Positions 15,501 to 51,545 of a stretch of 64,000 bases of DNA are shown piece by piece. Origin of the DNA: Flaccisagitta enflata (taxonomy: Eukaryota); assembly GCA_965153355.1 (NCBI GenBank), contig OZ231126.1, positions 7,068,001 to 7,132,000 on the forward strand, written 5' to 3'. Both the position numbers and the translations under genes were made by a program. A model generated the notes under the pieces. It searched no databases. It saw only the letters and a list, made by a program, of their open reading frames with translations, and was not told where the DNA came from. Every line of letters begins with the position of its first letter. Positions within the stretch are counted from its first letter, which is position 1.

Positions 15501-18500
15501 TATTCAAATTTTTGTTGAAACCAGTGCGGCGAGAGCTGTAGGAAAGAGGAAAGAGGAAAGAGTCAGTTGGTTTTTCTTATCTGGTACCATAATGATAATA
15601 TAATATTTTAACTGCCACAGACTGCCACATGCTTATTCCAATCTTTGTTGGATCCAGTGCAGCAAGAGCTGTAGGTACAACTAAAGATTTCTAGTTTGAT
15701 ACCATCATAACTGCCACAGACTGCCTTATGCCTATTCCAATCTTTGTTAGAATCAGCTCAGCAAGAGCTGTGGGTAAGAGGAGTGCTTACCAGAGTGCTC
15801 TTAAATTATGGTCCAATCTGAATCTTGTCTTCCTTGCCTAAGGAGTGTTTCCATATTCATCACAGATGATGGCTCTGGACTCATGTGATGATCAGATGAA
15901 GTTTACTCATGCCCACCACCCCACCTCTTTCCCATGATAAAAGATAAGAAACTTTGGAGGCATTTTCTACGAGATATGAGGGGGGTGGCGCGGAAAAACT
16001 TCATTTGATCGCTACAAGATTTTAGGCTTATCATCTGGGATGGACATGGTCTCCATTTGTCCACAAGGGGAACTGTTTATGCTTATGCTTATGTGCAAGA
16101 GCTGTAGGTAAGAGAACTGATGTCATTTGTTCCTTATTGTTTGGTACCAACATAACTGCCATGGACTGTCTCGTGCTTATTCCGACTTTTGTTGAAACAA
16201 GCACAGCGCCAATGAGAGCTGTAGGTCAATGGATTAAATTCTGTCATCCTTGACTGTTTCAAGGATATTTGTTTTGAGCCTGCACCTTAAGATTTACAGG
16301 TGTGTGAGGTGTGGCTGAGGCAAAAGCATTCCATTGAGCTTTGTTTGAAGTATTTCTTACACTATTAAATTTTCAGTGAGAGCTTCAGTATGAAATTTTC
16401 ATTGTCCAGGCATCTAATGATGTGTTTTCTTCTTCATAAACAGCAAATCATGTTAATCATGAAGCAACCTTCAACACAGTCCTGGCATTTCTCATGTTTG
16501 ACATTTGGGCTAAGTATGACCATTACAAAAACTACCATGGTAAGTGAATCTGAAACTCGAATCAAGCTGCACTGTGGACTGAAACGGACAGAGAGAAAAT
16601 TCTGGGCTGAGTGACAGAAATGGCGAGTTGATCTTAAATGAATCATTGACAAACACGAAAAAAATTCTGTAATGAGGGCAGTCATATGAGAATTCTGGCA
16701 GATTTTCAAGGAAAAGGATACTTTTCATGTTTCCATGTCTTCTCATTCAATTCTTTTCTTAGGTTTCCAATATTTCATGAATGTGTTTGTATTATCACCC
16801 ATCGTTGCCTTTCTCATGGCCCTGCTTTTCTTACAATTTTGTAAGTGGTTCCACAGCTGTTACATTTCAGATATGGTAAGTACAAATCTATTATGATAAC
16901 CTGTGCTTAAGGAGGATTTCAGTAATGTAACCCACCAAAGCGTAGGGCTTTGCTTTGCTTTGCTTATTGATTGCGCCTGGTCAAGGTATGGAGACCTTGG
17001 AGGTAAGATATGGGGGGCTATTAACTGGGGCTCAGTGCTTGCAGCTTTTGAATTGTATTGTAAAATATATTCTGGCAGGCAAGGAAGATTCATTTTCAAT
17101 GTGTATCCTGTTAACAAAACACTAATTTTGTTGTTAAACTACAGATTATTATTCTCTCCTTGATCATTATTTCATACATCGTTGGATACCACCTATTAAC
17201 TCTCTCTGGTACATTGATGGTTTTTGTATCAAGTCTTGTCGTACAATTCAACAAAACCATCCTATCATCTGAGGTAAAGACAAACACAAAATATGAAAAC
17301 AAGGCCGGATACACGGCTACCCAAGTTGCGTGCGGGTGGGCAGGGGCAGTGATGAAATAGACCAATCAAGCAGTTGGGCAGGAGCAGTAACCCCCAAACC
17401 TCCCATAAACGCCGAAAAATCAAAGTGTAACAGATGGACCAATGTACGGACCAGTGGACGGACCGACGGATGGGCTGCCGGACAGAGCAGGTTGCAGAGT
17501 TGCGTTCACGCAACTAAAAATGCAGAAACACAACTCTTGAACATGCCATGTTGGTCCGTTAGTTGATCAATCCGTCCAATCATCTGTCCGTCCTTCGGTA
17601 ACTTATTTGAGATGGGAGTGTTTTTTTGCTGTATAACCCTTTCCCACCCATCTGTGACTTGGGAAGTTGGGAGGAGTGTAGCGGCCTTGTTTAACTTCTT
17701 TTTGAGGTACAACGGGATCTTTTTTTTTAAATGATCTTTGGCTAAGGACCTATCTCCACAGTGTGCATATAGGAAATAAAGTTGATATGAATGCATTTTT
17801 AAGATCACGGTCCCTTTAGATGAATTTCTCCATTCCCTATTAAAGACAAGATTTGTTGGTCACTTGACATCCATTGTTGCAAAGTACCTGTACCTGTACC
17901 TTCATAATTTACATTCCTTCCCTAAATACTGAAGACTGACAAATAGGATACCAGAGCAAAACCTTGCAAAACCTTGACCACAAATCATGGTCTTGTTACT
18001 AACCATTTCAATTTCATCCATTTCTCTCAGGTTCTTTCAAGTGTATACATGACATTAGATGTGCTTACATTTATGAGTACATCAGTATTGACAGTATACA
18101 CCACTGTCTGGTTGATTCATTATACAGACATTTCCGTTGGTACGTGTTTACTTATGCCTTGTTAGAAAGACTGGCTCCAAGATGAGTCAAGCTGCAGTAA
18201 AGGGATACTCCACAGATGTTAACAAATAACCCGGGGAAACAATGTTGTCGCGGATATGCAACCCCTACCCCCTCCACACACACAAACTCTTTGAACAATT
18301 ACAAATAGTCCCGTCTCTTAAAGGAATAAAAACCAGGAACTCGGCGCTTTTGGAGCAAAGTGTGAAAATTTGCATACAGGGTCAGTTTTTCGTGCCGAAC
18401 AAGACTAGAAGGGGTACACGTCCGATTTTTTAGTGTACCCCTTTCAAAAACGCGTTTTTTTGCCCAAAAAACACTTTGAAATGGCGCTGACGCCAAACCA

Positions 18501-20595: not shown

Positions 20596-20638
<43 letters not shown>

Positions 20639-23600: not shown

Positions 23601-26600
23601 AACCAAATAAAAAAGTAGTCCAAGTAACTCAGGAGAATCTTTATGCTAAAATATGATTGAAAATTTACATAATTGGAAATATCTCAAAAATTGCTCATCA
23701 AAATATTTTCTATTGCACAGGTGATGTTTAGTATTGCCATGGACCATGCAATTCCATAAAAAAAACCCATGGTTATGTTGAGGCACACCCAAAGTGTCCC
23801 TGAGACAATGATGACTGCACCTGCCCACCCACATGTAACTGGGGTAGCCGTGAATCCAGCCTTGTTTTAAATTTGCGTTGTGTTACTGGCGAATATGTAA
23901 CCCTTTTCTTTTCAGAGGTGTTTCTGATAGAATCCATTACCCTTTATGTAATTGTGATGTTTGCTCGTGGTTTCGTCTTGGCAATGTTATTTCCATTGGG
24001 CAACATCGTTGGGTTTATGTTTGACTGGCGCCAAAAAATTGTAGTGGCTTGGTCTGGACTGCGCTCTCCCATATTGCTCATTTTGGCATTGTTATTCAAC
24101 ATGTACACCAAAAGTGATCCATATAGATTATATGATAAGTAGGTGCTAGTGCATTGATCCTACTTTGATCGTTTTGGTGTATGGTAAATTGGGACAGTTA
24201 AATCCCCTATCAACAGATTTCTGAGGGCCGATAAATCCTATTGGTTATAGGCGGAATGTTGTTATGGCCAATAATACTATGTTAGAAATAAAAAGGTTCC
24301 AACATTATTTCATTTATTGACATGAAAATGAAAACAAATCAATAACAAATCTATGAATATTTAGTGTCAGCTCCATTTGACTGAACCACCACCGCCGTTC
24401 ATCCGGTAAGCAGTTTGCAGAGCCTCCCCAGACTCCAGGTACTCTGGTGTGATGGCGTTTCAAACCTTTCTAGCTATTTTCTTGATCCCCCTCTTTTGCT
24501 ATGTTTACAATTGTAGCTCCAAAGAAATTCAACAAATGATAGATAAATTGGTGACATAAATGTAGCCATTCAAATTTGCTAGCAGTCTATGCAAACCACA
24601 GCTATCTAGCTCAATGTGTTTAGAAGTTAAAGAAGAAAAAGTGAAGTTTATTATTTGAAAATTATGTAGAAATGGCAAAAGTAAAACTGAAACATTTTAA
24701 TCAAAGTTGAATAACTTTTGAATGCATTGAGCTAGAGACATGCTGTTTTTGCAAATTTGCAAATTTGAAGGGCTTTAATAATCTTGCTTATCTTTTGATG
24801 ATTTGTTATATATGTAAATATAAATGTGAAGGAACCTTTTTTTTCTAAAATAGTAGAAATAAAAAGAAAACTGGTTGAGTAGAAATAAAAGAAAACTGGT
24901 TGAAACAACTTTTGTCTGTTTTAGGCGGAATTCCGTTAAGATATGGTCTTTTTGTGCGGGGTTCAACTGGACAAACAATTTGATGTTGGAAACATGTTGT
25001 TCTATCTGGGAAATGTAGACGCCTGAAGAGGAGTATCATTTTTAGAACAATGTTACTCCCAATAGATAGAGCTGCAATAAGACGGCGCTCTTTCAAAGGC
25101 AACATTTGTGTTTCAACGGAAGCAAAAGTAATAAACTAAAATGATTGAAACTGAATGATTAAACTGAAATAATCATTAAGATATATCATAATTAGTATTT
25201 GTTTGCATAACTTACGTCCAATCGTGATATATAACCAAATATAGCTGAAATCAATAAAGAAAATGAAATGCTAATTACTGTTTGTTTGTTTTTTTTTTTG
25301 TTTGGTTTTTTTTTTTTTGTTATTGACAGGAGGCCCATTGATATTCTAAGTTTGCATAGAAAATGAAAATATGAGTAATGAAAAATATAGTTCTCTTCCA
25401 AAATCGATTATGAAGAGAACTACATTTTTGAAAATGCAAAATTTCCCTGCATTTGAGTCTTAGAATTTCAACTAAAAAAATAAAGAAAGAATGGTAAGGA
25501 AAGTTTTATAAACTACCATGATTTTCTCGCTTTTCTCATATGAATTGCACAGTCAAAATGACCTATGAGGTTAGAATATGATAAAAATGTATAAACCAAG
25601 AGTCTTTAGAGACAATTTGTCTGTTGCAAGAATTTTTGCACTATTATTATCCAGAAAAATGATGCAAAAATTATAGTGAAATACTTAGTTTTCCTTTTAA
25701 AAATTTGCTGTCACAACCAGATTGGTCTCATTTTGTTGTTTAAACTGTTTGAATGCGGTTAAGCTTGAGCTGGAGTTAATTTGTTAGGGAGAAGCACTCT
25801 TCCAAAGCTGATGCTTAAAATCAGGTGTCCATATACAGTTGAACCCCACTCTAACGAGCCCGCCACCAACGGAATTCTGCCTACAACAGATGGAAATTCA
25901 TGATCCCTTCAAATCAATTTTTTTATTTCCTCTGTTGGCAATAACAGAAGTCCGCCTTTAACAAAAAAAACAATTGGTCCCCTGAAATTTGTTAGAGCTG
26001 AGTTCAACTGGATGTATTTCCATGCCTCGTTGCGGGGAATATGGATCAATTATATAGTTGGTTGTGTGCTAATTGTCTGCTGCATGACAGTGATTCTGAA
26101 TCCTAGATATTCTTCATTTCAGAGATTATGGATCAATTTTAGTTGGTTGGGTTTTCGGGGTCATCTGTTTGACCATGATCATAAATGCTCCTTCCATACC
26201 TAAACTAGTAAAAGTCATGGGACTTTTTGAATGCACGGAGGCGAGAAAGGCACATTTGGTGGAGGTCAATGAAAGAGTAGCTCTTGGCATGCATGCTCAG
26301 AAAGTGCTACTGATGACAGACAGGTTTGCTATGACCCAGTCAGTTCCTAAAAGATGCCCAGCTCGCAATTAGATTGGTTCTTTATGGTATTAGAAAGCAA
26401 GTTCAGGTCTTGTTGAAGATTTTCTTGCCTTCCCGGGGTAAGGGTTTTGGTATTACCATAATTGCCCATGACATTGGTAAAAGATGGTTGTTGGGAAGTG
26501 TCCATTTTTTGGTCACTTTGGCCTCAAATTTATGCCACTTCGCCTTTGAAATCAAACCTAAAATCCATGAGATTATAAGACTAGAGCTGAAGAGCTAACC

Positions 26601-29600: not shown

Positions 29601-32600
29601 GGATACACATATAAGGTGTGTATAGCAGAGTTAATCTAATTTTTCTCTCAAGGTTTTTGGCGGATGCAAATTGGACCTACATTGACAGCCTTTTCTTGTT
29701 GGAGGAAAATGAAGAGGATAATAAGAGATATTCATCCAATATGAATCACAGTCTAAAAATGTCTGTGTGTCCAGAATGCCTTTTCCGACATCCAAATTCG
29801 CCAAATGACAAAGAAATTTTTGAGATTGCAGAAGATTGGAGGTAAGTCATGAAAACAATAATTGCAAGTGTCTTGGCCGCCTTTATTAACTACTACCTAG
29901 GAAAAAAGTCTACGTTCACTTGAGGAAACAGTGCATTTATGCCAAAAATGTCAACAAAACGAGGTGCTTTTTTTCTTGTCAACATCATTTGGTGTCTTGC
30001 CTAGTTTATGGCTACTACTGTTTGGCATTGTAACAATTTGCTGAGCCTCAACGTGAATTCAAACAAGATATGTCATTGGAACTTCCCCGTAGCTTTTTAT
30101 CAACCACTCAGCTGATATCACTCATTCCTCTTAATCCAGATGCTTAATTTTGACAAAGGTTATCAACTATAGTGACATTGGGACTTATTGGGATAATCTT
30201 ATGCCAAATCAAATCAAACAGTTTATTTCCCAACATGAACAGTGGTTAACATCAAGGAGTGAAATGTTTTGTCGGGGAGGACTATGACTAAGCCTCCAGT
30301 GTCTAAGTCTATTTATGTCACAAAATTTTTTTTTTCAAATTCACGACGGGCTTGCTCTAGCTAGCCCTCATTGTACAAGAGTATCTTTTGTAAGTATTCT
30401 TTAAAAAAAAGAGAAAGTACAAAAAATGTACATAACAAAAACGTACAGGTACGTTAAATAAAGGCATCAACAAGAAAAAACCGAATAAATAATTATACAA
30501 GATGGTATATGCTACCATATAACAATAGACAGTTATAAATACTAGGTTACAAGTATTTGGGATTCAGAAGGGTGTTGGATGTTGGCTATCGGATGTTCAT
30601 TTTTTTCAAGTTTGATGAGGCGATGTCAGAGCCAGGTGTTCCTGAGAAGAAAAGATGGAGAAAGACCAGAAAAGGCACCCATTAGAAGATCCCCTGCTTC
30701 ATGGGGGAGCAAACTGCGCATTAGTCGTACATAATATGATTAGTCTCAAATCAGTTTTGTGCACAGCTTTCTAGACAATCCATCTTGCCTACATAGATTA
30801 TCATTGCAATATACGCGAAGAAGTGAATTGATAATGAGGATGAATACAGATACCAATCAACATTTGAACCACATGAATATCAACTCAATACAAATTTCTG
30901 TTACAGTACCGTTGTAATGAGGATCCGCTAGGGACACTGTCTGAGAAAACAGACAGGTATAGTGGGGAAGAGTCTGTCCTTTGAAGGACACCCCCTTGTG
31001 TTTACCTTTAATTGGGCTAAAGCTGAGTTTCATAATATGACAAGAGGGCTATGGTCTGACAGGACATGGCCTGTGAGGGCCAGGAACTGTCTGGGTGCCA
31101 TCGAGATGGCATTGAATATCAGAGAAAATTAGTTTTAATGAGTTTAGTTGTAAGTAGGAAATAGAGAAAAAAATGGGCCTATTTGTACCTAACAAACCTA
31201 ACCTAGCAAACCCTATCCAAACCTAACCAGTGCATGAAAAATATCCATTATAACAAAGAAAATATACCGAGACAATAACTTGATTCTGTGTTGACAACAG
31301 CGCTCACCAAAACTGACTTAATTCTCTTTTTCTTCGTTTTCCAAAAAGACATGTCATCTTACAATCGCTCTCATTTCTATATGGTTAAAGCCACAAGAAT
31401 GGGATTGGTCTGAAATGATAGATCTTTCAAAGCAGTTTCTGAATCTCAACAAGTTTTCTTACTTATCTTGACTAGAAGCATAATAATTACTACTTATAGG
31501 TGAACGAAGACTTTTTTCCTAGGTAGTATGTGGGGCTATCAGGGTCTAGGACTGGGCCGAATCAACCATTTGCAAGGCCCTGGGCACTTGAGGGGGCGAG
31601 GCCCCCCTCTACCAAAAGTCTAGCCTTCCCCCCCCCCCTCCATTGGAGAGAACAATAATTGCAAGTGTCTTGGCCGCCTTTACTAACAACGTGGGGCTAT
31701 CAGGGTCTAGGACTAGGCCGAATCAACCATTTGCAAGGCCCTGGGCACTCGAGGGGGCGAGGCCCCCCTCTACCAGAAGTCTAGCCTTCCCCTCCCCCCC
31801 CCCCCCAATTGGCGCACTTCCATTCTGGAGACATACTTCTCTCTACTGGCTATTGTTTTTTGGTTACCTTGATATCCAAAGCTTTTGACATGCATTACCA
31901 GAAATGGCGGCTATCGCCGTGAGGAAAAAAGTCATGAGCATTGGTCACTTTTCACCATGCCTTTGACATCAGTAACTGCAATCTTTTTATTTGTTTGATT
32001 AAATCAAGAGCAATTGTTTGTATTGAATACACTAAAAATCAGCAAAAAAATAAAACTGAGCAAAACGAGCTCAGTGAGCTAGAATACTGAAAAACTCCCT
32101 CACAGATGAGCAGCTATGCTCACCAACATGCTTTCTTGTATTTGCATGCTTAGACAAGTATCAAAACATCCATTCATTTTTCCGATTAAAAACAGAAAAA
32201 AAAATTGAGCCAAATGAGCTAAATGAGCTAGAATACTTAAAAACACCCTCAACAATGAGCAGCCACACTCAGGAACATGTTTTCTTTTATTTGCATGCTC
32301 AAACAAATAATACTTTTCTTTATTGATCCTACACAAAATCGTAAAAAATCGAAAAAAATTCTATAAGAATATTTTATAAAAAAAAAAATTCATAACTCGA
32401 AAAATATTTGTTGCCAAATGAAAAAGAATTATCAAATTTACTTAGAGGGGTGAGGCAAATCGGGCCAGGGGCAAATCGGGCCACTTGTGTACAATAATGT
32501 CACTTCTGAAATGAATATTGGGATAAAAGTAGTGATGATCCTGCTATGAGTTGCACCAGTCAATGGGGTTGTTGGGGTGATGTTTCTTCAGAACTGCTGC

Positions 32601-35600: not shown

Positions 35601-37022
35601 AGCTCAGTAGAAATGTACCTTGCTTTTCAGATTGCTGTTGCTTCATTGGGAGAGTATTTCCTACAAACAGCAGAATGTAGCTGGATTGCTATCCTCCATC
35701 ACAACTCAAGATTTGTGCATAATTCCCCACAGGAAGATTGAGGTAAAGGGAGAGTATTGCCACGTAGCAAAAGTGATGCAGGAAGCCATTGAACACACAA
35801 AGAGCATCACAACTGTCATCAAATTCAAGTGTGGATCAAAAAAAGCTGAAGAAGAGAACCAAAATCTCCAAAGAGCTCACAGCTTGCCACGTATGATGAC
35901 TCATGGCTAAAGAAATACTAATACTGGAAGCTTTCATCTTTGGGAAGTTCCAGGAAAAACAGTTATACTTTGATAGTCTCAACTTGTTGCAGGACTATGT
36001 GCCAGTTATAATGTTTTTCCAGGGCTAAGTATGCCAGATCAACAAAAAGGAATATGCAAGATCACTGTTTAAAGTGACAACATTATAAATCCATCAAATA
36101 ACACTTTCAACAGACAACATTTTAAATCCATCAATAACAGCTGAGATCAGAAAATTGCAATGAAAAGAATGCATCTTTATACTTATAGCGTCATAATCCA
36201 TCATACTTGCCTTGCTCAGCCTTCAATCCTCAACATCCCTTATCAACATCTCTGGATGAATCAGCCTTTGAGTACATGAATTCAAGAATGACCAATCCCA
36301 AATCGCAGTTGCGTCATTTTCACATCAATGATAACATGACCAAAAACCATGACCAGTTGCAATTAAATGACATTTACATCAATAATAGCATGACCAAATT
36401 CAGCAACCTGCGGAGATTTTCTACTGCTGCAACTCAACAAATGAATTCATCCTCAAATTGGCAAAACACCATGTAGGAAATTTCATGCTTCTTGGCAAGT
36501 GAATGATTTTGATATTCAAGTAAATTCATAGCTTTCTTTTCGCAACTAGAAGGGACAAGATTGCTTCTCGAATAAGATTTTTATAAAAACAGATTAGTTT
36601 TGTATAGTATACTAGACTTGTTTATATTCTGAATATAAAAATCAGACGGAAAGCAAGAATGAAGATAGGTCATATTATGCAACAGATGAGTTTGAATGCC
36701 CTGCTAGACCTCATTATAATGGCCAAGAGATGTCCAATAGATGCATCCTCTTTGTATACAAGACAATATAAAAGAAGAGACTATGAAATTGAGAGAAAAC
36801 CCTCAAAATTGTTTTAAGAAACTTTCTGGTTACGGATAGACCTACGGACACACCCTCATAGGGACGCAAGGATGCATCTAAAACATGGGATTTAACCCCA
36901 TGCCAAACCCAAGTCCACCCCAAGTCAACCCTGAGCACACCCCAAGTCAACGCCAAGCCAACCCCGAGCTTTGGGTTGCTCGGGGTTACTCGGGTTGGCT
37001 CGGGGTTGGCTCAGGATTGCCA

Positions 37023-37065
<43 letters not shown>

Positions 37066-37077
37066 AAGAGAATTAGT

Positions 37078-37150
<73 letters not shown>

Positions 37151-40100
37151 TTGTTGTGGTAGTTAAAGCAATTGTGCTTTTCACTAAAGAATTTCTGTCA
37201 ACCCTGAGCAAACCCCGAGCAATCCCGAGCAAATCCCGAGCAGCCCTGAGCAATTCCAAACTTGGGTTGCTCGGGGTTGATTCCAGGTTCAACCTCAAGC
37301 AACCCTGAGCAACTCCTGGGGTTTAATCTCACCCCAGATACAGGTTTTCAAATGAAAATTGTTGGTGTTGTTGTATGATTTTTATGTTTGGAGAAGCTAA
37401 GATTAGATGAAAAAGCCCATCCCACCTTAATCTGGGGGCTGAGAAAAACTTGAGATGAATCAGATTAGATTACATGAAAAGCATACTTCTTGTTGCCCCC
37501 GTGAGAGGAAATTTTACATGAAGAAAGCTGATGGTTTTGCAGAGCTTCAGTTAAGATTTCATCTCACTGGGTGATGGAAGTATGCTTTTCATGTAAATCA
37601 AGCTATTGAAACATGATAGATTCACCTCGGATTTTTCTCAACCTCCAGATCAAGATGCATCCATCCTGATCATTTAAATGATTTTAGACAGGATCAGGGC
37701 AAATCCACTTTAAAAAATTGTTATTTAGAAGTAAAAAAAGCTAAAAAAAGATTTTTTTTAAGATTCATCACACTCAGAATGCAGTATATCAAATCCAAAG
37801 TCACAAAGGTATTTCAGTTCAAGTAGTCCGAAACTAGAGGATTAGATTTTTGTTGAATTGTTTTTCTGGATTCAATTATCTTATTATCTTATTTGATAAA
37901 CAAGAAAAATCATACTATAGTACAGGCCCTGATTTAGAGCGTGCCCGCGTGCCCGAGGCACTCTGTTTTATTGTCGAGCACATGGTTTTTGCTGATGGCG
38001 TGCTCAGCTGGCACTCTCTTATTACAGCAGGCTAACTGAATTTTATAAACGTTGACATTTTTCATTTGATTGCTTAAAGAACAATCATCAGTTCATTTGA
38101 TTATCTCTTTGATTTGTCCATCCATACATTAATTCTTTCAATCATTAATTCATTCATTCATTTATTCAATAATTCATTCATTCATTCATTCATTCTTTCA
38201 TCTATTCAGTCATGCAATTATTCATTCCTTAATTCATTTTTCCATTCACTCATGCATATACTTATTCTTTTATTCTTCCTTTATCTTTTTGAAAATGGAA
38301 TAAAATTACTTGAATTTCATTCAACACAAATTAGAATTTATTTTCTTAATAAGAATTCAATCAAATGAATGGATCATAGATCTCGGAATCTTTGATTGAT
38401 TTATTCATTCATTCTTAAATTGACTTATCTGTTCATACAAAGGGAAATTCTAAACTTCTTAATAAAAAAAATTATCAATTTCTGACTAATTCTGTGTTTC
38501 GCATTCATTCTTTACTGAATGAATGCATATGTTTTGGTGGAATCAGTTTCATTATGTATATTTATATCATTGCTTAATATAATGAAGTGTGAAAACATAA
38601 GTGTGGCACGCTCATTCTCTGTTGGGCACGCTGAAATTGTGAGGAGCGTGCCCGGCGTGCACACTCAACAGAATTACTAAATTAGGGCCTGCTGTAGTAC
38701 TTTAATCACTGAGAGCAAACAATGAAATGTCAATAAAAAGAGTGAAGTACCAGACAAATTGGCTAGACTTTTGATTTGATCATAATCTGAAGCAGAATAA
38801 ACAACATTACCTAGACCTGTCACTCAACCAAATTCAACATATCCTGCAGTAATTTTGAAAAACACCCAGACCAAAGGTCTAGCATACCTGGTTAATACTG
38901 CCACTATATCCTTTAAGGAAACAATTATGGAAGTAACGGGTGGTCTTTAAAAAAGTGGCTTTTGATTCTTTTGATAACACTTTTAAAATTTCTCCTAAGT
39001 AAAAAATTTTTTAGTCGCGTGCACGCGACTCTACAACCTGCTTTGTCGGTCGGTCCATCCGTCCGTCCGTAGGTCCGTCTGTCACACTTTACTTTTTTGT
39101 ACTATAACGTCAACTCTTAGGTCATTTTAAGTCATTTTAAGTCAATTATAGTTATTCTAAGTCATTTTGAGTCAGTCTAAGTCATTTTAAGTCATTTTAA
39201 GTCATTTTAAGTTATTTTAAGTTATTTTTGGTTTTTTGTTTTTTAGTCATTTCAAGTCAATTTTGGTCATTTTAGGTTATTCTAAGTCATTGAAAGTCAT
39301 TCTAAGTCACACTTTGTCTGTAAGTCTCGCCTTGTTTTTTAGCTACCTAGATATGATTGTCGCGTACATGTTCCATTATGAATATTTTTCCTGAGGATCA
39401 ATATTTTCCATTTTATTTTAAAAAAAACTGAATTGAATTAGGGACCACTAAAAGAATTTTGCTTGAATTTGACTAAAAATCAATGATTTTAACAAAATTT
39501 ACTTTTGAATGAAGGTAGTTCAATAAAAGTGGGTCTTAGGAAAGTATAGAAACCAAAACTTCTTGAAAAAAAATGTAATGCACACCCAAAACAGTAATGA
39601 TAATCAATTATCACTTTTGGTTATAAATAGGCAATAATACTCAGAAAAAATCATTTTGGTGTATCATACATAATTTAAATTTATATAATTTAATCATATT
39701 TACAAATTCAGAGATTCACTTTTTCAAATATTCACATAATAAGCTATTAAAAACAGTTTTTATTTTATTGAGATACAGAGCTACCTTTTTTATGTCCACC
39801 CGGTATCTACTTCATGTAAACAAATCACAAACAAAGTAAAGCTTTGCGTTTATAGGTAGACCATTAAATGGCCACATTTTTTTTCAAAAATTCCATTACT
39901 TAAAGCTTATTCATTTACTTGCCAACAAATCTTCTTCTTTTAAAAAAGTTTACGTAGTAGCGTTGATGGCAAGCGTCGATTTACCACAGAAATAATTGAT
40001 GAAAGGGACTCACAGTTTTCAAGCACCTTGAATGTTGATCACGTTGTTGATAACTATGTCTATGAGAACGTGGATGATGGAGCAGCAAAGAAAGAACCCA

Positions 40101-42118
40101 ATATTACTGAGGCTGGATTCACATGGAAGTACATTGTGACATAAGCAAAGAGGCCCTCAGAAGGAGGTTATTTTCCTACATTACAATTTAAATGAAGTAG
40201 CTCACACTATGTTTTTCTTTAAAAGTTGTTGGGCTTAAGCTTTGAGTGAGCATAGTTTTAGCTCAAGCTGTCGACCAAAAAGTTGAGCAAAAAATTCAGC
40301 ACCTCAGGCTTTAAAGCGACAATTTTGAAGAGAGAGAAATGCTGAACTGAAATTCAGCTCTCTACTTACTGAGCCACTGCGCCCCTTTTGGGCAGCGGCC
40401 CCGAAGGGGCCGATGACCTATGCTTTCACACATAGGGGAAATTTTTCCTTCTTCTCCGTCCACCCCCCTCGAAGCTCATATCCTGGCCTTGGGGCCATAA
40501 TCCTAGTCTAGAGGCCCAGATCCTAGTCTAGAGGCCCAAATTCTAGCCTCAAGGCCCAAATCCTTGCCTCAAGACTCAAATCCCAACCTTGCGGCTCAAA
40601 TCCCAACCTTGAGGCTCAAATCCCAGTCTAGAGGCCCATATCCCAGCCTCGAGGCCCATATCCCAGCCTCGAGGCCCATATCCCAGCCTCGAGGCCCATA
40701 TCCCAGCCTCGAGGCCCATATCCCAGCCTCGAGGCCCATATCCCAGCCCCGAGGCCCATATCCCAGCCTCGAGGCCCATAGCCCAGCCCCGAGGCCCATA
40801 TCCCAGCCTCGAGGCTCATATCCCAGCCTCAAGGCCCATATCCCAGCCTCGAGGCCCAAATCCCGGCCTCAAGGCCCATATCCCAGCCTTGAGACCCATA
40901 TCCCAGCCTCGAGGCTCACATCCAAACCTTGAGGCTCGAATCCCAGCCTTAACCCTCAAATCCAAGCCTTAAGCCTCAAATCCTAGCCTTGAGGCTCAAA
41001 TCACAGCCTCATGGCTCAAATCACAGCCTAAAGCATCAAATCATAGCCACGAGGCTCAAATAAGAGCCTCATGGCTCAAATCACAGCCTAGATACTCAAA
41101 TTCCAGCCTCAAATCCCAGCCTCAAGCCTCAAATCCCAGCCTTGAGGCTCAAATCACAGCCTCGAGGCTCAAATCACAGACTCGAGGCTCAAATCACAGA
41201 TTCGAGGCTCAAATCACAGCCTCATGGCTCAAATCACAGCCTCATGGCTCAAATCACAGCTTTGAGGCTCAAATTCAATCCTAGAGCATCAAAACTTACT
41301 AAGCATAGGTCATCGGCCCCTTCGGGGCCGCTGCCCCTCTCACCATCACACATCACATATACTCACATAGGGGCAACGGGTACCGCTGACCATCTAACGC
41401 TTTTGCGACTATTTACAGTGGGACACCTACTGTCTGTTATCTTTTAAATCACTTGGTGTGGAATTTAAATTCATTCAAAGCCTTAAACCATGAGCTTTCA
41501 TAAGAAAAGAACTAAGTAATGTAAATGTAGGAGACCCTCTTTATACTAGCCCTATTGCTCCCAATGCACTGTGCCTATTTATTAGTTCAAAGCTTTTAAA
41601 GCAGCAATTCTAAAAAGTAAATACCCCATATGGCCCCATAGGCCCCCATATGGCCCCATAGGCCCCATATGCCCCATATGCCGCTATATGGCCCCATATG
41701 CACCAATATGCACCAATATGCCATATATTTCTTTTTTCATAAAATAACTGTCACACACTTGCTACGAGAGAAAATACATTGTATATGCCCAGCATTGTGA
41801 AGAAAAAAAACACAAAAATGTGAATGCAGCCTGAGTTTGGAATCAACGCCAAAAATAATGAAATGGACTATTTTGGGCTGGATGAAAGCCAAAAGTTGAA
41901 CAAGTCTGGCATTTGGCGCATGGTTCATTCACTGCCTTTTGAAATAATTGTGATCATTGTTGTACTGACAAATTCAGTTACAATTGCATATGAAGCAGTT
42001 CATAAATTCTATTTTAAGGAACAGTGTAATGATTTGAACTTGTTTGCCACAGAGGCTGCTTTCAACGCCTTTTATCTCTTTGAATTCATAATGCGTATTC
42101 TGGCTGATAAAGGTAAGT

Positions 42119-42194
<76 letters not shown>

Positions 42195-45100
42195 TTTGTT
42201 TGTTTTTTTTTAGTAAGCCAAATTAAGAGAGCTTTAGTGAGATAAATGAGTAATGATAACCTATAGTGACTTCATTTGTCAAATCAATCTGTTGTTTGAT
42301 TTAAAAGCCACAGCGCCAAGTAGCAACAATTGTCTTTTTGAGGCCCATTTTAGCGATCCCCAATGATTGAACAAACCCTCTCTTTCTCACACACAAAAAA
42401 ACAAGGAAAATATATTCCGGCTTCAATGTGGGGTTTATTTGACGGAGCGTTGTTGATCTTGGGCATTGTGAGCGTTGGCCATCAATTAGACCACTCCCAT
42501 TGGAAAGGAACTGCTATGTGTAAAGAACATCGACTGTACCATCATCATGAGGATGTGGGTATTTTGTCTTGACACATGCGCCACATTTAGGCGGAAAATG
42601 TGGGAACATAGTTGCCATAGTAATTATTACACCAGTAGCATGAAATTTAAACTGGAGGTAGCATTTTAGCAGGGTGTCCAATAAATTTGGCAAAATCTTA
42701 AAGATAGCACCTAAAAGCTATTCCCAACTGATAGTTTTTATCCAAATAATGGTCAACCATAATGGTGTGTTAATTTTAAATACTTATCATCCAACAGGCA
42801 GCAAGAATCCATGAGAATAGGTCCGTACAAGGCAGGAAAGGTCCATTTGAAGTTGTCAAGTCAACATTAGCTTTGATGAACAAAAGAACACTGATCATTT
42901 ATTTCAAGTTATTCTAGCTGAATTTTTTCAATGCCTTGAGCCGATTTTGAGTAAATAGGATTGTTCTGCTTCAATGATGTATACCAACCTATTTATTGAC
43001 CACATTTGGGTGCTTAACTTGATGTTAAGAGGTCTAGTAAGTTGCTATTCTCTGCCATATTTTTTTGATAAAAATTCCCAAAAACTGGAAAGTTTGTCTA
43101 GGGCATAAAACCTTGCCTTTCAAACCAAAGGAGTCCACATGAAAAACAGCACATTCTAACAACTAATAGAACTAATTGGGAGACTACATACTAAATTTCA
43201 GCTTACTGGGCCGCCTATAAGCATGGTTTGAATGCACTTTAGTTTTTGCCAATTTGATTGGACACCCTGTTAGTAGAATTTTCATTTAGTGTTATGATTC
43301 AATCATAATTCAATTCATAAATAGGGTATTTCAGCCAAGATGTTGAAATTCCAATATCAAAATGTTGCTGATTTTTCCCACTTTAAAATCAATTGAAATT
43401 GATCATCTTTAAAAGACTTTTACAGGAACCTGAGTACTAGAGAGTGATCAAAATTGACTGACAATCATGCCCATGAGTATTTCAAAGTAATTGGATTGAA
43501 TATTGCACAGTTTTTGGCCCCTAAATAGCGCAATACTGGATAAACAGACAGAAAATTAAAAAGTCCAAAAATTAAGTTTTTTGAATGCTGCTTGTGCGAG
43601 ATTAGATACAAAATACTACTTCTTACATTCATATGACATCTTTATGTCATTGTCTAAGCCTATGGTGACCTAAATTTAGGTCACATACTTTCTCCATTAG
43701 ATTGTGGAAGTTTTTTTGCTTTTAATGACAATAATAAGACTCAATCCTCATTTTCCGCCTAAATGTGGCGCATTTGTTATACTTATCATATTTATACATA
43801 TTTAGATCTAGGGCCATTGAAGGTACTCTATCTTTCCATCCATCCAACATTTATGTTTTTAGGTAATAGACTCTTTTATGGCCTAATGGTATCTTTTTCA
43901 TATATTTGACATAAAAATTTTGGGGCAAATTTTGAAAAAAACAAAACTTAGATAATATTTTCCAATATTTTCCATAAGTATTTGTGTTTAAAAGTACAAA
44001 CATGGACTTATGGGTTTGTCATGCTGAGGCCTAAAAGTGATTGTATTACTGATGAACCTGAAGGATTTATATATCAAAAGATAACGGGAAGAAATCAAAG
44101 AGAATACATTGTTCATCTGTTTTAGTTGCAGTTTTTCAATGATCGATTGACAAAAAAAGTGTTTCAGCCTATGGTTTCAATGACAAACCATTAAAAATGT
44201 ATCCAAAGACTGGTCCCATCAACCATGATTTTTCTCTCTGCCATGAGGATTGAGGAATAGCCCACTAAGAAAAAACGCTTTTTCACAGGAAAGTTCTCTA
44301 TCAAAGAGATATGACTCAAAATCATGAAAATAGATGGCCAATGACAAAAATTTGACCTTGGGGCCTCTATAAAGTGTGCCCGCCACTACCCTCATATCCC
44401 ATAGGAAATGTACAGGAGGATTTTGGTCTGCAAAGCCTTCTTTCTTTTACAATGGGAAATAGGGTAAGTGGCGGGCTCACTTTATAGAAGCCCCATGACC
44501 AAATTTTTGTCAAGTACCATCATATCTCTTCAATAGAAAACTTTTCTATGAAAAAGTGTGTTTTCTTACTGGGCTAATGAGGAATGGCAGAATTCCTTTA
44601 AAATCTTTTACGCGATTATTCATAAATGGCAAATAAAAGAAATCAAAAAAGATGTTTTTGCATTTACTTAAAAGTTATATAACCCTCCTTAAGGAGTCTA
44701 CGCGGGCAATTTTGGGGCGTTTCTTTCGGTTTATCCGCATTCTACGAGTGATGAGATATTTTGTTGGTGAAAACTCGACCATCGCGCAAAGAATCAAGGA
44801 CAAAAAATTGTTCACGGCTCATGAAATAGCCGGGGCATTAGTAAGAAGCGCCGAATTTCAAACAGCACAAATGAAAAATGAAGAATCATTGTCTTCTGCG
44901 GTTGAGTTTGAGGCAATCAGCAAATCCAATCGCGCGAGAGTCAAGGTTGGCACAGGGAGGAGCTGGAGGCATCTATAGTTTATACTGAAAATTAAGGCGG
45001 GGATGTATATGATTGACTGGGGGGGAGAATACAAGGGTTTGGAGGTTAGGAAGGGAAAGAAAGGAGGGTAAAAGAGAAACAAGGCCGAATAAACGGCTAC

Positions 45101-48100
45101 CCTAGTTGCATGCAGGTGGGCAGGAGCAGTGCTGGAGAAGGTCACTAGGGCATCTGGGCAGGAACCGTATGCTCAAAAAGCTCAAAAACGCCAAAAAAGT
45201 AAAAAGGCGACTAACCGACAGACCGACCGACCGACCGACCAACCAACCGATGGACCGACTTAGCGGGGTGAAGTGTCACGAAGCACGCCACTAAAAAGGA
45301 TAATTTTTGAAAATCATTTCTTTTGGCAATACCAAAACATAAAACAATTTAACACTATTTGAACCTAAAATATACTGTTTTAATGCCCTATGGGGAAGGA
45401 AACCATATATCTTGTAACACAAGGCGACATGTCGCGGTTAGAGATCAAATGCAGGGGGAATCAAAAGCGACTCTATTTTTGGTAACTGTAACTGTGTCAA
45501 AATAATAAAAAAACAATAAGTTTTTTTTTTAATTGACTGTAAATAGTTTATACTTTACAATTAAAATCCATGAGCACTTTAAAGAGCTTCGAAAACTCTA
45601 CAAATCTAGATCAAGCAGAAATTTATTTTTTTGAATTCTCTCCAAAATGGAATCAAGCAAAAATCATGATTCTTATCCGTTTAAAAGCTACATCAATTCA
45701 AAGTTGGTTACTCTGAAAAGATAACAAGACCAGATACACAGCTACCCCAATAGCGTGCGGGTGGGCAGGGGCTGAATTAGAGGTCACTAGATCATTTGGG
45801 TAGGTGCAGTGAGACCAAAGACCACAAAAACCCTAAAGAAGTAAAGTGTGACGGACGGACCGATGGACAGATGGATGGACACAAACACCCAGAGCATGAC
45901 GCTAGTTGACCTTCTCATTGCTTGGGTGTAAAACACTGACAAACATGTTGTTTGTTTTTTTATTTTGCCATAATTAATTTTTTACTAGAGGTTAAGGTTA
46001 TTGGAAATGAAGAAGCACTGTGATTTCATGTTGAGGATACAAGTTAGTGAAAAGGGGCAGAAGAGCTGTGCTGTGTGTTCTGAGTTACTAATGACCTTTA
46101 ACAGGCAAATTATTTTCTGGCGAATGCGTATGTGTGCTATCTGAGTCACAAGGATCCTGGAATCAACATTTCATTGCGAACGAGACAGGCTGCTGCTCAC
46201 CTGGTTGAAAAACTGGATGAACGCGTGCGGCTGCTGCACTCTCGCGGGTTAATGGAAGATGACGATCTACAGGTCAGAAAGCGATATTGAAATGAGTTAG
46301 TTCATATCTCAAATCATGGGATGATTACGTCCCTTACGGACTAGTCGTCCTTATGCCAAGGAATGAAAAGTTTAATGAAACTTGCGCAAAGCGTTGGAAA
46401 AATATTGAGGGTTTACTGGTTTTGCTTTGGGCCTAGAAAAAATTCAGTTAAGAGAAGGACTTTCAAACAATAAGATTCAAGAATTTAAAGAATAAGACTC
46501 AACAAGGCCAAGTAGGCCAATAGGTGCGACGTGTGGATCGTCGAACGAATGCGTTACCGACCAACCAACCGACCAACCGACCGACCAACCAACCGACGGA
46601 CACAGCCAGTTATAGAGGTGCTTTGTCGCACCTAAAAATGAATTTTGGATTTTTAGTCGCGCGCTAGGCGACTCTTAACCCCGGTCGGTTGGCTGGTTGG
46701 TTGGTCGGTTGGTCCCCTTTTTACGTTTTCGGCGTTTTAGAGTGTTTTGAGCTCACTGCTCCTGCCCAAATGTCACACGTGAGGAAATTTCTTTTCTTCA
46801 CCTCCGAGTATCAAGACCCAAATTCTGCCAAATTCTGTCCAAATTCCAGACTTCAGGCCCATATCCCCCAGCCCTCCTGCACGCGACATGGATAGCCGTG
46901 TATCTAGCCTTGTTGTCATGCAAATTCAATGAGTAGAACCTATAATGGTCTTTATTCAATGATTTTTTTTTTAGTCGCTGACACGCGACTCTATGAGCCA
47001 CTTTGTCGGTTGGTCCATCGGTCGGTCTGTCCGTCAGTTTGTTACAAAGTCACTTTTCAAGGTTTTCCGCTCCTGCCCACCCGTCCGCGACTAATGCTGC
47101 CGTGTATACGGCCTTGTTTTGTTTTTTTTGCTCAGTATTCTTTTTAGTTGCGGACACGCAACTCTATAAGAGGCTTTGTCCGTCCGTCGGTCGGTCCGTC
47201 GGTCGGTCGGTCCGTCGGTCGGTCGGTCGGTCCGTCACGCTCGAGTTAAACACGCAAGAAACGCGCATTTACGATGCTGCAGTTGTCATTGAATGTGTGT
47301 GGGCGTATGTTAGTGTGTGGGAAGGGGGTTGGGGTGAGGCTGGGGGTTGGCTGCCCCTGCCCACCCGTCCGCAACGATATTGTGACCCCGCGTCACTTGT
47401 TTTCTTTTTGGTCTTATTCTGAATAGGAATTTAAGAGCATGTTCTATAGAAAACTGTGCATCAATCGTGAGTTGCCAGCAAGACTGGAAATCCCCAAACC
47501 CAGAAAAGCATTACGCAATTTCTCCTGGCTTTCCAATGATAAACTGGCTCAAAGATACATCATCCATGAAGCTGAGTTGCTGCAATTTGATCCGGGTGCA
47601 GTTATCACCAATGAAGAAGATGACTATAAGGTAAAGGGCTGAAATGCTTTGACAGTTGAACTGTTACTAACTTTTATTACCTTTTATAACTGGAGGTTGA
47701 TTTTAGAATCTGAAAGAAAAGTTAAAGCTGAAATCTTTAGAATAGAGCAGCTGTCTGTATCATTTACACTTAATATTTCTTCTTTTTTTCAAGTAAACAA
47801 CGGGGGGGGGGGTTCACACTGTCCCAATGTTACCCTCTGAGAGCTTAAGCATTACGATGATACACGCAAAATGTAAATCCTCTTGTTCAGCTGATACTCA
47901 AATCATCTCCCAAGTTTTGACGACATCTACTGTAGCTTTTTCTCAATGAAGCATACAGTAGAATCTTGCATTTAAAACTGACGCTCTATTTTGAATGTTC
48001 ACCTAAACTATCTCAATCTGTCTTTGCAGGGTATCTATTTTATAGTGTATGGATTTGTAATGGTAAAAGGTGTTACAGGACTCACGCATGCCTTTCAATC

Positions 48101-51100
48101 CCTGATGCACGGAGCGGATATAAGCTCTAAGCATGGAAGGTGCGTAACAGGCGATGTATAAAGATGTATAGAGATGTATATAAAGGGCTTGGTGGGTGAG
48201 TTGCAGAGCTGAAAACGTTTTTTTCTCAGATGTACATATGGACCAAACAGACGTATACTAGCTCAGGCTAGCAGATTGCTTTACCGTGTTTGAGCTGGGG
48301 GAAGTTAGCCAACCTCAACATTTTTAGTTGCGGACACGCAACTCTATAAGAGGCTTTGTCCGTCCGTCCGTCGGTCGGTTCGTCGGTCGGTCCGTCGGTG
48401 AGCACAAGTCGAAAAGTGTGAAAATGCGCATTTCCGCTCCTGCCCACCCGTCCGCAACTAGTGGCCGTGTATCCGGCCTTGTTCTAATAAAAATTGATAA
48501 AATAAATGACTAAGACAGGGGAGAAAAACAAAACTTTGTTGTTTTTTGTTGTGTATGAATTAAACGCTTTATGGACAAAAACACATAATGACAGGTAGCT
48601 TGATTTTTTTTCCGCACACGTGGTTGGGCTTTCTACAGATTGAAACTTATTTTGCTCTGTTCTGTTCTGCTAATCATACAAGTGACATGGGGTCGGGTAC
48701 TGGTGGGAAGAGGCATCTAACCCCCTGCCTCACCCCCCCCCACCTTCCAACCCCCGCCCCACCCACACAATAACAACTGCAGCATCACGAATGCACGTTT
48801 TTCGTTTTTTCAACCCTAGCAAGACGGACCGATCGATGGACCAACGGACGAAACAACAGACGGACAAAACCTCTTTTAGAATTGCCAGTCCGCGGCTTAA
48901 CAAAGATGTAGTTAAAATTTGAATCAATTAGAAATCTGGGTCCAAACTTGATGCGCCAAGTAAGTTGTTTAATGTTATTTTAGTAACGAGAATTCATAAG
49001 ATGCTGAGAACACAATCAGATTCATATGAAAAGAATATGGTAAACGATTGGAGCATTCAGGTTTGTTTTGATCAGGGGCTAGCAAATCTATTACTTTTTT
49101 ATCGATATGATGAAGATATAACGACCTTGACGCATGATTAGTTAAGTTACAGAACTGTAGCTGCTTTGTATGGAGAGGATGTAACCTCAGAACATTGTTT
49201 CAATAGTCTATCATTTCATAAAAAGTAACAAGGCCGGAAACACGGCTACCCGAGTCACGTATAGATGGGCAGGGGAAGCGATAAAGTAGGCCAACTAAGC
49301 GTTTGGGCAGGAGTAGAGAATCAAAACCTTTCTGTAAACGCCACAAAAGCTAAGTGTGACTAACAAATGGACCAACCTACCGACAGAGCGGGTAATTGAG
49401 TCGCGTGTTTGCGTCTAACAAGAAATCCCAGCCTAAAGGCCTCAATCCTGGCGTCAAGGCCCAAATCCCAGCCGCAATGCCTGAATCTCAGCCTAAAGCA
49501 CAAGATCCAGGCCTGAGGCTCGAATCCCAGCCTCAAGGCCCAAATCTCAGCCTTGAATGAATGAAAAAATCTATTTTCTCCGAAACATGGGGCATTGTAA
49601 CACTTTTGGTTACCTATACAAAACAGAGCGTGCTACGCCTAAGCGGGACGTCCAAAGACTTTAACGATTACAGAGTGCTTGAAGTCAATTTGTAGACTGC
49701 TAGTGAATGGCAGACCAAACCAGCCTCGAAGTCCAAATCCCGGTATCAAGAACAAAATCCAGCCCTGAGGCCTAAATCTCAGCCCCGAGGCCCACAACCC
49801 CAGCCCTAGGGCCTAAATCTTTGCCCAAAGGACCCAATCCCAACCACAAGAAGGTCATCGGTCCCTTTCAGGAACACTGCCCCGCATTCTCCCTCGACTT
49901 CAATCACAACCCACATAGGCAGGCACGTGTACCGCTGACCATCTAACAATTTTGCAAACAAGCAATTTATTGCAATGAATTATGGTAGAGAAGGGTTTTC
50001 AACTGGCTAGTATATTGGCAATACATACATATAGACCAGCTATCTTTTGGTCGCGGACTCTAGATCTTGCCATATCGGTCGGTCGGTCTGCCGGTCACAA
50101 TTTTGAATTGTGAGCAGTTTCGGCATAACTGCCCATGCCAAACAGTCCGCGAATAGGGTGCCGTGTATCCGACCTTGTTAAGGAATGCTTTTTACATGTA
50201 TGTTGCCCTGCCCAAAACAAACTTTCACAGTCAATTTTTTATATTTGTTAGATGGAGTAAAGAATTGCCGATATCATATTTGAACAAACTAAACCAGAAA
50301 AGTCTGAAAGTTGTGACAGACCCTGAGGATCGAATTATGGCGAAATGCAATCAAATGCTTGACATGGAGTTTCAGTTTTTCTCCAGTGGATATGTCGTCA
50401 GTGAAGTGAATATGGTTTACCACGGCCTGCCAATCTGCAGAACAGTCTGCGTTACTCCAGTTAAAGCCTATCACCTCAAGGCAAGTGATAGCGAAAGAAA
50501 CTAGTAACGTACTAAAATTAGCAACGTTTTTCAGATTCTGTTCATGGAATACTAGGAGTGGTGCGCGTACATTAACTAGTTCACAAGGCCCTCTTCCATT
50601 TGTTATAGTTTGGGTATTGTGAGGAAACTTGCACCCTGATCAGGATAAGGTAATTGAATTGCCTATAGTCCTTGGCGCCATAAAAATGGAAGTCTTTCTT
50701 TGTTGTTTTTATTGATAAAAATTTATAGAAAATATTTTTTGCACTTTCTCATGTACTTTTTAAGTAATAGGGTGTCCATTTCAGGTCTTGGTTTCAAAGT
50801 GAATCATCATACTGCCTAAATTTTTGTGATTGAACATATAGCTAAAGTAAGAGCATTTTTGCGCCATTTTCCTGGAAGTCTAAAAACTGTCTTTTTGATT
50901 CCATTCTGTTCTCAAAAGCCTTTGTTTTACCCCCAACATGAGTGTCCAAACCTGGAACTAAATCATGGGTTGTAAAATGATTAAACCTTACTCATTTTCT
51001 TTCAAAAACAGCAGTTCAAATCCAAAAATGATTCTATTACCTAAAACCATATTAATGTGGAAAGGGAGCTTGTTCCACTTTTCATGGCTTGACCTGCCAC

Positions 51101-51475
51101 TATGAAGAACAGTCTGCGTTGCTTTAGACAAACTAATATCAATTGACGATTGTGTGGTAGAGAGAAACAAGGCCAAAGACATGGCTACCCCAGTCGCGTG
51201 CGGGTTGGCAGGGTCTGTATTTGTAGTACTTGATTATTTGGGCAGGAGCAGTGAGGCCAAAGACCACAAAAAACAAAAAAAAGTTAAGTGTAATGGACAG
51301 ATGGACGGACGGATAGATGGATGGACGGATGGACGGACGGATGGATGGACGGATGGACGGACGGATGGATGGACGGACGGACAGATGGACCGACAAAGCG
51401 GGTTATAGAGCCGCGTAGCACGCGACTAACAATTAAATGTGCAACCAATCTTTGCATGCGCTTTTGACATGGTAC

Positions 51476-51545
<70 letters not shown>

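Follow-up and report, generated by a model that had tools for sequence, protein, structure and literature searches.

A highly divergent SLC9C-type gene of Flaccisagitta enflata with retained voltage-sensor residues and altered ion-binding and cAMP-binding sites

Introduction

The SLC9C proteins have been described as unique among known carriers in being gated by a voltage sensor of channel type (PMC10620092). Here we describe a gene of this type in a stretch of 64,000 nucleotides of Flaccisagitta enflata (assembly GCA_965153355.1, contig OZ231126.1, positions 7,068,001 to 7,132,000 of the forward strand), the whole of which is referred to below as the window. In sea urchin SLC9C1 the ion site consists of Asp209, Glu233, Asn237, Asp238, Arg399 and Arg431 (PMC10620092; bioRxiv 10.1101/2023.10.04.560940), and the D238A variant gave Na+-evoked currents no higher than those of empty liposomes (PMC10620092). 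The sensor of the same protein comprises the gating charges K1-K6 (Lys800 to Lys815) and a charge-transfer centre of Tyr743, Glu746 and Asp767, together with the further residues Glu698, Asn691, Asn736 and Asp777 (PMC10620092). Among the variants described for the sea urchin protein are R399A, R803Q and R1053Q, the last of which abolishes the shift produced by cyclic AMP (cAMP) (PMC6052114).

In mammalian SLC9C1 (NHE10), the Asn-Asp (ND) motif of the ion site is replaced by TS, three of the four N-terminal S4 charges are missing, and other functions have been suggested (Windler et al. 2018, PMC6052114). In mammalian SLC9C2 (NHE11), ND is replaced by IC and 3/7 S4 charges are present, with the Arg of the phosphate-binding cassette retained (Gardner et al. 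2023, PMC10049371). In the mouse, soluble adenylyl cyclase requires SLC9C1, the sensor of which binds TMEM217, while the role of the sensor in the ND-less mammalian SLC9Cs is still open (PMC12557800). Outside mammals, no ND-less SLC9C is described in the covered portions of the literature, including the comparative paper PMC6660944, supplementary alignments lying outside this scope. In the gene of the window, our alignment bears out the central statement of an earlier note on this DNA, namely that the hallmarks of the voltage sensor are retained while the ion-binding Asp and the canonical cAMP-binding Arg are absent.

Results

Identity and structure of the gene

The DNA of the window is AT-rich, laden with repeats and of animal type (GC 0.33-0.48). 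A profile of 21 SLC9C proteins was searched against every open frame on both strands, and its significant matches were found on the plus strand only, collinear with the profile: the exchanger at 12.7-26.3 kb, the cytoplasmic helices at 29.6-35.8 kb, S1-S4 at 41.8-44.9 kb, and the linker with the cyclic nucleotide-binding domain (CNBD) at 46.1-51.8 kb. Exons 1-8 cover profile positions 90-477 of the exchanger domain, transmembrane helices (TM) 1-2 being unmapped. A voltage sensor follows the exchanger, recognized by a Pfam Ion_trans match on the S1-S2 exon (E 1.1e-5, 25.3 bits with a cut-off of 25), by an S4 with five Arg and by the columns of the charge-transfer centre, and exons 14-18 place a CNBD after S4 (profile positions 823-1030, all collinear). 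The plus-strand multi-exon gene is of SLC9C type, with an exchanger domain followed by an S1-S4 voltage sensor and then a CNBD.

Our gene model comprises 18 exons between 12683 and 51837 (39 kb), all bounded by AG and GT and phase-compatible, and its 1010 codons contain no stop and give a single-domain alignment to profile positions 90-1030 (352.5 bits, E 2.6e-109). Junctions were sought by joining, for each neighbouring exon pair, all frame-keeping GT donors and AG acceptors and scoring the joined peptides against the profile; joins containing stops were discarded, so that the absence of stops is partly a product of construction. Since both gene ends are unmapped, the uninterrupted frame of ~1400 codons over ~58 kb announced in the earlier note was not reproduced, although a span of that size is plausible; the limits given there, 16444 and ~50480, coincide with splice sites of the ND exon and of the cassette exon (50484). 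Exon 2 is associated with about 9-10 degenerate tandem copies of a 111-base unit at 15041-16233 (Tandem Repeats Finder periods 110-111). The unit consists of the last ~85 bases of the exon, which encode the A-T-D helix, the donor site and ~25 intron bases; the copies are 76-92% identical (blastn) and are confined, within the window, to 15-16 kb.

Tblastn with representative proteins located exon 7 only, and a custom profile was needed. A full HMMER scan with exon 7 returned 31 proteins at E up to 0.001, consisting of a 74-residue environmental fragment (99% identity), three exon-sized fragments (35-49%) and Na+/H+ exchangers of SOS1/SLC9C type. In the PDB this exon matched SOS1 at E 1.3e-6 and sea urchin SLC9C1 at E 2.4e-5; for exon 15, all 8 distinct sequences matched there were SLC9C1 chains (E about 4e-4). 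A Pfam scan of 10 open frames gave a family match for the S1-S2 exon only, Na_H_Exchanger being unmatched by single exons, and neither the S4 exon nor exon 7 matched a longer protein in word-index searches. Named SLC9C proteins were reached by onward search from a spider match; they include the sea urchin protein of the solved structures (P0060), whose numbering corresponds to native + 1 (28/28 check residues agree).

In a maximum-likelihood tree of 31 rows, built from an alignment that contained no mammalian SLC9C sequence, the gene falls inside the animal SLC9C clade, a set of 14 rows supported at 96 by the Shimodaira-Hasegawa-like approximate likelihood ratio test (SH-aLRT). There it belongs to an unresolved group with fish and echinoderm proteins, the placement of so long a row being unsure. 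Because of its architecture and its position in the tree, we regard it as a real and very divergent animal member of SLC9C, the sperm-type Na+/H+ exchangers with a voltage sensor. The collinear profile alignment, the PDB and Pfam matches and the tree all agree with the assignment to SLC9C in the earlier note.

Exchanger ion site

The ND motif reads N-T at 16473-16478, and the position of Asp238 is occupied by Thr. This confirms the loss of the ND Asp that had been proposed, since the column holds Asp in all other aligned SLC9Cs (13/13) and in all 21 profile members. In addition, no alternative exon-like stretch with E-x3-N-D was found in the six frames of the window. The other five of the six exchanger-core residues are kept, as equivalents of Asp209, Glu233, Asn237, Arg399 and Arg431. 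With respect to active electroneutral CPA1 exchangers, the gene therefore lacks the Asp of the ND motif and retains the TM5 Asp, the Glu-Arg salt bridge and the crossover Arg (equivalents of Asp209, Glu233, Arg399 and Arg431).

Voltage sensor

The S4 helix lies on the plus strand at 44703-44756 and carries Arg at 44718, 44727, 44736, 44745 and 44754, with a sixth Arg five residues upstream. Direct reading thus reproduces the five Arg at every third position (44718-44756) that had been noticed before. Across all six frames of the window this pattern, five Arg with two uncharged residues between each and the next, is present a single time, and 30 block shuffles did not produce it. In S2, Y-L-F-E at 42073-42084 aligns to Tyr743 and Glu746 of the sea urchin protein, and in S3, W-G-L-F-D at 42429-42443 aligns to Asp767, so that the reported counter-charges YLFE and WGLFD are found again both by reading and by alignment. 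Our alignment shows that the columns of Tyr743, Glu746, Asp767, Glu698 and Asn691 are kept and that Arg stands at R2-K6, that is, at five of the six gating-charge positions. Changes concern K1 (Ala), Asn736 (Glu) and Asp777 (Ser). Gating charges on a three-residue repeat and a charge-transfer centre, the marks of a functional S4-type sensor, are in place.

cAMP site

The phosphate-binding cassette has Ser-Glu instead of Gly-Glu, and the column of Arg1053 holds Pro (50430-50432). The pattern of a ligand-competent CNBD, Gly-Glu with an Arg nine residues later, is absent. An Arg-Thr pair is present at 50439-50444, three residues past the canonical Arg position. The proposed loss of the CNBD Arg is consequently correct for the canonical place and needs qualification for the cassette as a whole.

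The cassette Arg is also absent from 6 of the 12 other SLC9Cs with a residue at this place (two fish, two spiders, a tardigrade and one unnamed record). Since these six have Met, Ser or Ala in the Arg1053 column, a ligand-blind CNBD would be common in the SLC9C family. Domains of this kind are known from KCNH channels, whose CNB-homology domains have the CNBD fold without the phosphate-binding Arg. The spider SLC9C-like proteins P0043 and P0046 keep ND, but their cassette has lost its Glu as well as its Arg, the gating charge R2 is missing, and they are only 18-26% identical to the sea urchin protein in linker, sensor and CNBD. Spider SLC9C, judged by these residues, is another strongly remodelled lineage.

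Divergence and constraint

With canonical SLC9Cs the window protein shares 21-25% of its residues over the exchanger, 19-23% over the sensor and 11-31% over the CNBD, as compared with an identity of 37-65% between the sea urchin protein and the nemertean or sturgeon proteins. The end branch of the gene measures 3.04 changes per column, with a median of 0.53, and is the longest in the tree. Of all single-base changes that the model can undergo, 4.6% would introduce a stop, and under neutral divergence the chance of a still-open frame would be 6% at 2% and 0.1% at 5%; an open frame is compatible with only ~0.5-1% neutral divergence. Because neutral drift would soon bring stops, most of the divergence must have accumulated while selection maintained an open frame. 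This estimate excludes an old pseudogene and is compatible with a very recent one. The argument from the open frame made in the earlier note therefore holds against an old pseudogene, and it is weakened to the extent that the absence of stops arises from model construction.

The environmental relatives of exon 7 (P0032, P0002, P0003 and P0007; 99, 47, 44 and 29% identical) have both core Arg unchanged and read across the acceptor site in the same way. With two near-identical environmental fragments there is no residue change, except for a start-codon reading at the first residue, and the intron-derived flank of one of them shows three substitutions and a 5-residue gap. The shared core Arg and acceptor reading suggest that the fragments represent a small family or a set of orthologues with shared exon structure. 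P0002, P0003, P0007 and P0032 also share with exon 7 a derived G-[LI]-R-[SA]-P turn, as opposed to G-L-R-G-A in the family. The shared turn and acceptor reading hint that divergent SLC9C-like genes form a clade in marine animals. A metagenome scan for exon 7 relatives gave 77 pattern matches, none of which was confirmed.

Discussion

The reading we favour, with a rough probability of 0.55, is that of an intact-looking, very fast-evolving SLC9C gene in which the sensor is kept, exchange and cAMP tuning are lost or strongly altered, and the role resembles that of the mammalian proteins. The S4 helix would still be able to move in the membrane field. Canonical 1:1 Na+/H+ exchange would be lost or strongly altered, because D238A left only background-level Na+-evoked currents in the sea urchin protein, and the same would apply to cAMP tuning, because R1053Q abolishes the cAMP shift there; the nucleotide domain would act like a ligand-free CNB-homology domain. 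With both functions altered, its way of working would be closer to that of the ND-less mammalian SLC9C1 and SLC9C2, whose role is tied to partners (soluble adenylyl cyclase, for instance), than to that of the sea urchin exchanger. That the protein senses voltage without transporting is something that we can only infer from the sequence. To read it as a pseudo-exchanger with a working sensor is reasonable, and mirrors an idea published for the mammalian SLC9C proteins.

A number of observations weigh against this reading. The sensor is no better conserved than the other domains (19-23% versus 21-25% for the exchanger), and since its identity matches their low level, the view that it has been specially spared cannot be upheld. 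The residues of the sea urchin inhibitory helix that form the clamp, Lys939, Arg940 and Asn943, align to Cys, Ile and Glu; the Lys939 column, which is Cys here (exons 14-15, 46105-47630), holds Lys in 12/13 other aligned SLC9Cs. Because these residues differ, the known link between sensor and transporter would be lost if the alignment is right: the coupling of sensor and exchanger may be gone, or the linker, with an identity of 15-22%, may be misaligned. The displaced Arg-Thr pair of the cassette might still bind phosphate. With regard to the gene model, signals are weak at four junctions (35814/41830, 42517/44675, 48069/50311 and 50484/51667), and at both unmapped gene ends the first TM helices and the C-terminal tail gave weak candidates only. 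The second copy of the exon 2 repeat continues the frame of the exon and carries a donor of its own at 15237, the use of which would insert 37 residues into TM5. Finally, a PDB search with the S4 exon alone gave no match up to E 10, and one with the S1-S2 exon gave a calcium channel (E 0.92) as its sole match and missed SLC9C1.

The RNA evidence adds to these points. The public runs recovered with 41800-51799 were three from a single study of marine metatranscriptomes (word share 0.05-0.06) and a polyA run (X4), and all were mapped onto 32500-52499; of X4, about 6 in 100 were read. In that part of X4 the bins of the S1-S4 exons have zero depth, and none of the four runs gives any depth in the S1-S3 bin. 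Only 58 of the 4866 mapped reads of X4 are at least 99% alike, most being partial repeat matches (share running on unlike 0.98). The metatranscriptome contigs are of low depth and lie within introns (for example 42682-42804) or span exon borders (for example 47400-47688 over exon 15), so that they represent DNA or unspliced RNA. Among the 15 joints listed, with 270 more in existence, none fits the gene model. The runs neither support nor refute expression of the gene. The contigs fit at 0-3 differences per 123-289 bases, and such near-identity shows that the organism or a close relative was present in those marine samples. As regards the introns at 33.2-34.5, 38.5-41.8, 46.5-48.5 and 51.2-51.8 kb, depth is dominated by repeats, with summed contig depths of hundreds to thousands in the metatranscriptomes, and the polyA run shows numerous joints there that are inverted or run backward; the stretches in question are high-copy repeats.

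Other explanations need to be weighed against the one we favour. The protein could still be an ion transporter of changed chemistry, gated by voltage alone, in which the equivalents of Asp209 and Glu233 together with Asn237 carry another substrate or coupling. The core retains 5/6 of its residues including both Arg that tune the site, these Arg are invariant in four related exon fragments, beyond what a mere scaffold would seem to need, and the exchanger has retained its hydrophobic helices, with 11 hydropathy peaks over residues 1-365 of the model. We nevertheless consider this explanation unlikely, as the TM5-TM6 stretch, near-invariant in 21/21 relatives, is rewritten here. Still less probable is that a lineage-specific SLC9C duplicate is decaying here or has recently died, either as a pseudogene or under relaxed constraint, and that its open frame is a leftover. 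The longest branch of the tree (3.04), the loss of the otherwise invariant Asp238, the absence of an RNA signal in the runs examined, first and last exons that were not found, a tandem repeat grown from exon 2 and a stop-free model that is partly constructed would all fit such decay. It is difficult to reconcile with 18 segments that are all open, phase-compatible, bounded by GT/AG and joined in one unbroken profile alignment, or with structural and sensor residues that are kept. Furthermore, the limit of ~0.5-1% neutral divergence contrasts with an amino-acid divergence of 70-85%, which argues for selection on the open frame, and exon 7 is residue-identical, bar the first residue, to two environmental fragments while the intron-derived flank differs.

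The earlier note had also considered a regulatory, non-transporting subunit that heterodimerizes with a canonical SLC9C paralog of the same genome. Sea urchin SLC9C1 has been modelled as a homodimer (PMC10620092). More generally, a degenerate protomer beside an active one is a known theme among pseudo-enzymes. We rate this as the least probable of the alternatives: no canonical paralog lies within the window, where downstream and minus-strand profile matches remain at chance level, the gene could equally be the sole SLC9C of a fast-evolving lineage, and the helices of the dimer interface are only 21-25% identical to those of canonical proteins.

Returning to the reading of a kept sensor with altered exchange and cAMP tuning, a natural variant that has nearly all gating charges but neither the ion-binding Asp nor the canonical cAMP Arg would make a clean test case. 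Gating currents without exchange would separate sensing from transport and indicate a partner-directed output, whereas persistent transport would mean that the ND Asp is replaceable in this fold. A bolder proposal, which we regard as rather doubtful, is that a non-mammalian lineage has independently turned SLC9C into a sensor without transport or cAMP control, with selection keeping S4 and the charge-transfer centre for a non-transport output such as voltage control of soluble adenylyl cyclase or of a canonical protomer. If true, this would be a natural sensor-only SLC9C.

Exon map and other features of the window

The exons and weak candidate exons are collected in Table 1.

Table 1. Exons of the SLC9C-type gene model and candidate exons at its ends (positions within the window).
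Feature	Position	Strand	Basis
Possible exon, exchanger TM2 (weak candidate)	9585-9672	+	AG acceptor, 5/7 donor; by-eye likeness to SLC9C1 'LPIPYTVVLLILG' region; profile gain ~4-8 bits
Exon 1, TM3 region	12683-12856	+	Profile positions 88-120; join to exon 2, 30.6 bits
Exon 2, TM4-TM5, A-T-D at 15066-15074 (Asp209 equivalent)	14937-15126	+	hmmsearch E 1.2e-4; Asp209 column kept
Exon 3, TM6, Glu233 and Asn237 kept, Asp238 to Thr	16444-16539	+	Acceptor 13/18 pyrimidines; donor 6/7
Exon 4, TM7 region	16763-16875	+	Acceptor 15/18, donor 6/7, phase-compatible
Exon 5, TM8 region	17145-17273	+	hmmsearch profile positions 261-304, E 0.042
Exon 6, TM9 region	18031-18139	+	Strong acceptor after branch-point-like 'tactaac'; phase suits exons 5 and 7
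Exon 7, TM11-TM12, Arg399 equivalent 23966-23968, Arg431 equivalent 24062-24064	23916-24138	+	Profile 39.6 bits; PDB matches
Exon 8, TM13 and start of cytoplasmic helices	26123-26323	+	hmmsearch E 1.5e-5; junction 65.4 bits
Exon 9, cytoplasmic helical domain	29653-29841	+	hmmsearch E 3.4e-6; junction 54.4 bits; donor 6/7
Exon 10, helical domain, donor unsure	35631-35814	+	Junction with exon 9, 28.3 bits; downstream junction poor (donor 2/7, acceptor 5/18)
Exon 11, S1 and S2, acceptor unsure	41830-42112	+	Pfam Ion_trans; donor 7/7; Tyr743/Glu746/Glu698 columns kept
Exon 12, S3, donor unsure (42467, 42473 or 42517)	42406-42517	+	Asp767 column kept; Asp777 column Ser
Exon 13, S4 (44703-44756) and long cytoplasmic continuation	44675-44945	+	S4 Arg pattern unique in window
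Exon 14, helices between S4 and CNBD	46105-46272	+	hmmsearch E 1.3e-4; junctions 32.7 and 59.0 bits
Exon 15, linker and first CNBD strands	47427-47630	+	PDB matches to SLC9C1 chains only; profile 31.7 bits
Exon 16, CNBD strand, 'GIYFIV.G' type	48030-48069	+	Junction with exon 15, 45.0 bits; acceptor 13/18
Exon 17, phosphate-binding cassette (50385-50453), acceptor unsure	50311-50484	+	Ser-Glu; Pro 50430-50432; Arg-Thr 50439-50444
Exon 18, CNBD C-helix region, acceptor unsure (51637 or 51667)	51667-51837	+	Weak junction scores, 6.6 and 0.9 bits
Possible C-terminal exon (weak candidate)	61872-61994	+	Profile positions 1114-1154, 2.3 bits, E 4.7

A second, tandem SLC9C gene at 59.9-62 kb was considered and rejected, as the profile matches there are at chance (E 26-38) and an 'LND' string at 61.7 kb is without supporting context. 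On the minus strand, a 376-residue open frame at 7796-8926, inside the presumed first large intron, looks by eye like the C-terminal part of a non-LTR (long terminal repeat) retrotransposon protein. On the plus strand, a 132-residue frame at 3-401 is open at the window start and may be the last exon of an upstream gene. Pfam gave no match for seven further frames including these two, the 376-residue frame having been searched at E up to 0.1. Many short tandem repeats and microsatellite arrays are spread over the window.

Comparison with known systems

Sea urchin SLC9C1 (sNHE; PDB 8PCZ, 8OTQ, 8U6Z and further entries) resembles the protein of the window in its three-part architecture and the order of the parts, in the Tyr/Glu/Asp charge-transfer centre, in the occupation of R2-K6, which are all Arg here, and in five core residues. 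The two differ in that identity is 16-26% per domain and the CNBD beta-roll is shorter in the window protein, which also shows Asp238 to Thr, Arg1053 to Pro, K1 to Ala and Asp777 to Ser and has no like residues at the clamp positions Lys939, Arg940 and Asn943. The other SLC9Cs without the cassette Arg (fish, spiders, tardigrade and the unnamed record) all keep Asp238, unlike the gene described here. With regard to more distant systems, the Arg is likewise absent from the CNBD-like domain of plant SOS1 in the aligned SOS1 rows; SOS1, however, has no voltage sensor and keeps ND. The KCNH proteins, whose CNB-homology domains also lack this Arg, are channels and not carriers.

The replacement of ND is shared with the mammalian proteins, where TS (SLC9C1) or IC (SLC9C2) stands in place of the N-T found here. 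The proposal of an undescribed system accordingly goes too far, since the loss of ND is published for mammalian SLC9C1 and SLC9C2 and the cassette Arg is missing from 6/12 other SLC9Cs; at the level of sequence, the gene is a variant of a published theme. It differs from the mammalian proteins in that most S4 charges are lost there, whereas the window protein keeps its S4 charges and the Asn of the motif, and NHE11 keeps the cassette Arg that is displaced here. As far as its residues indicate, the gene of the window is thus the complement of the mammalian state, with near-full S4 charges, the Asn of the motif kept and its Asp lost, and the cassette Arg displaced.

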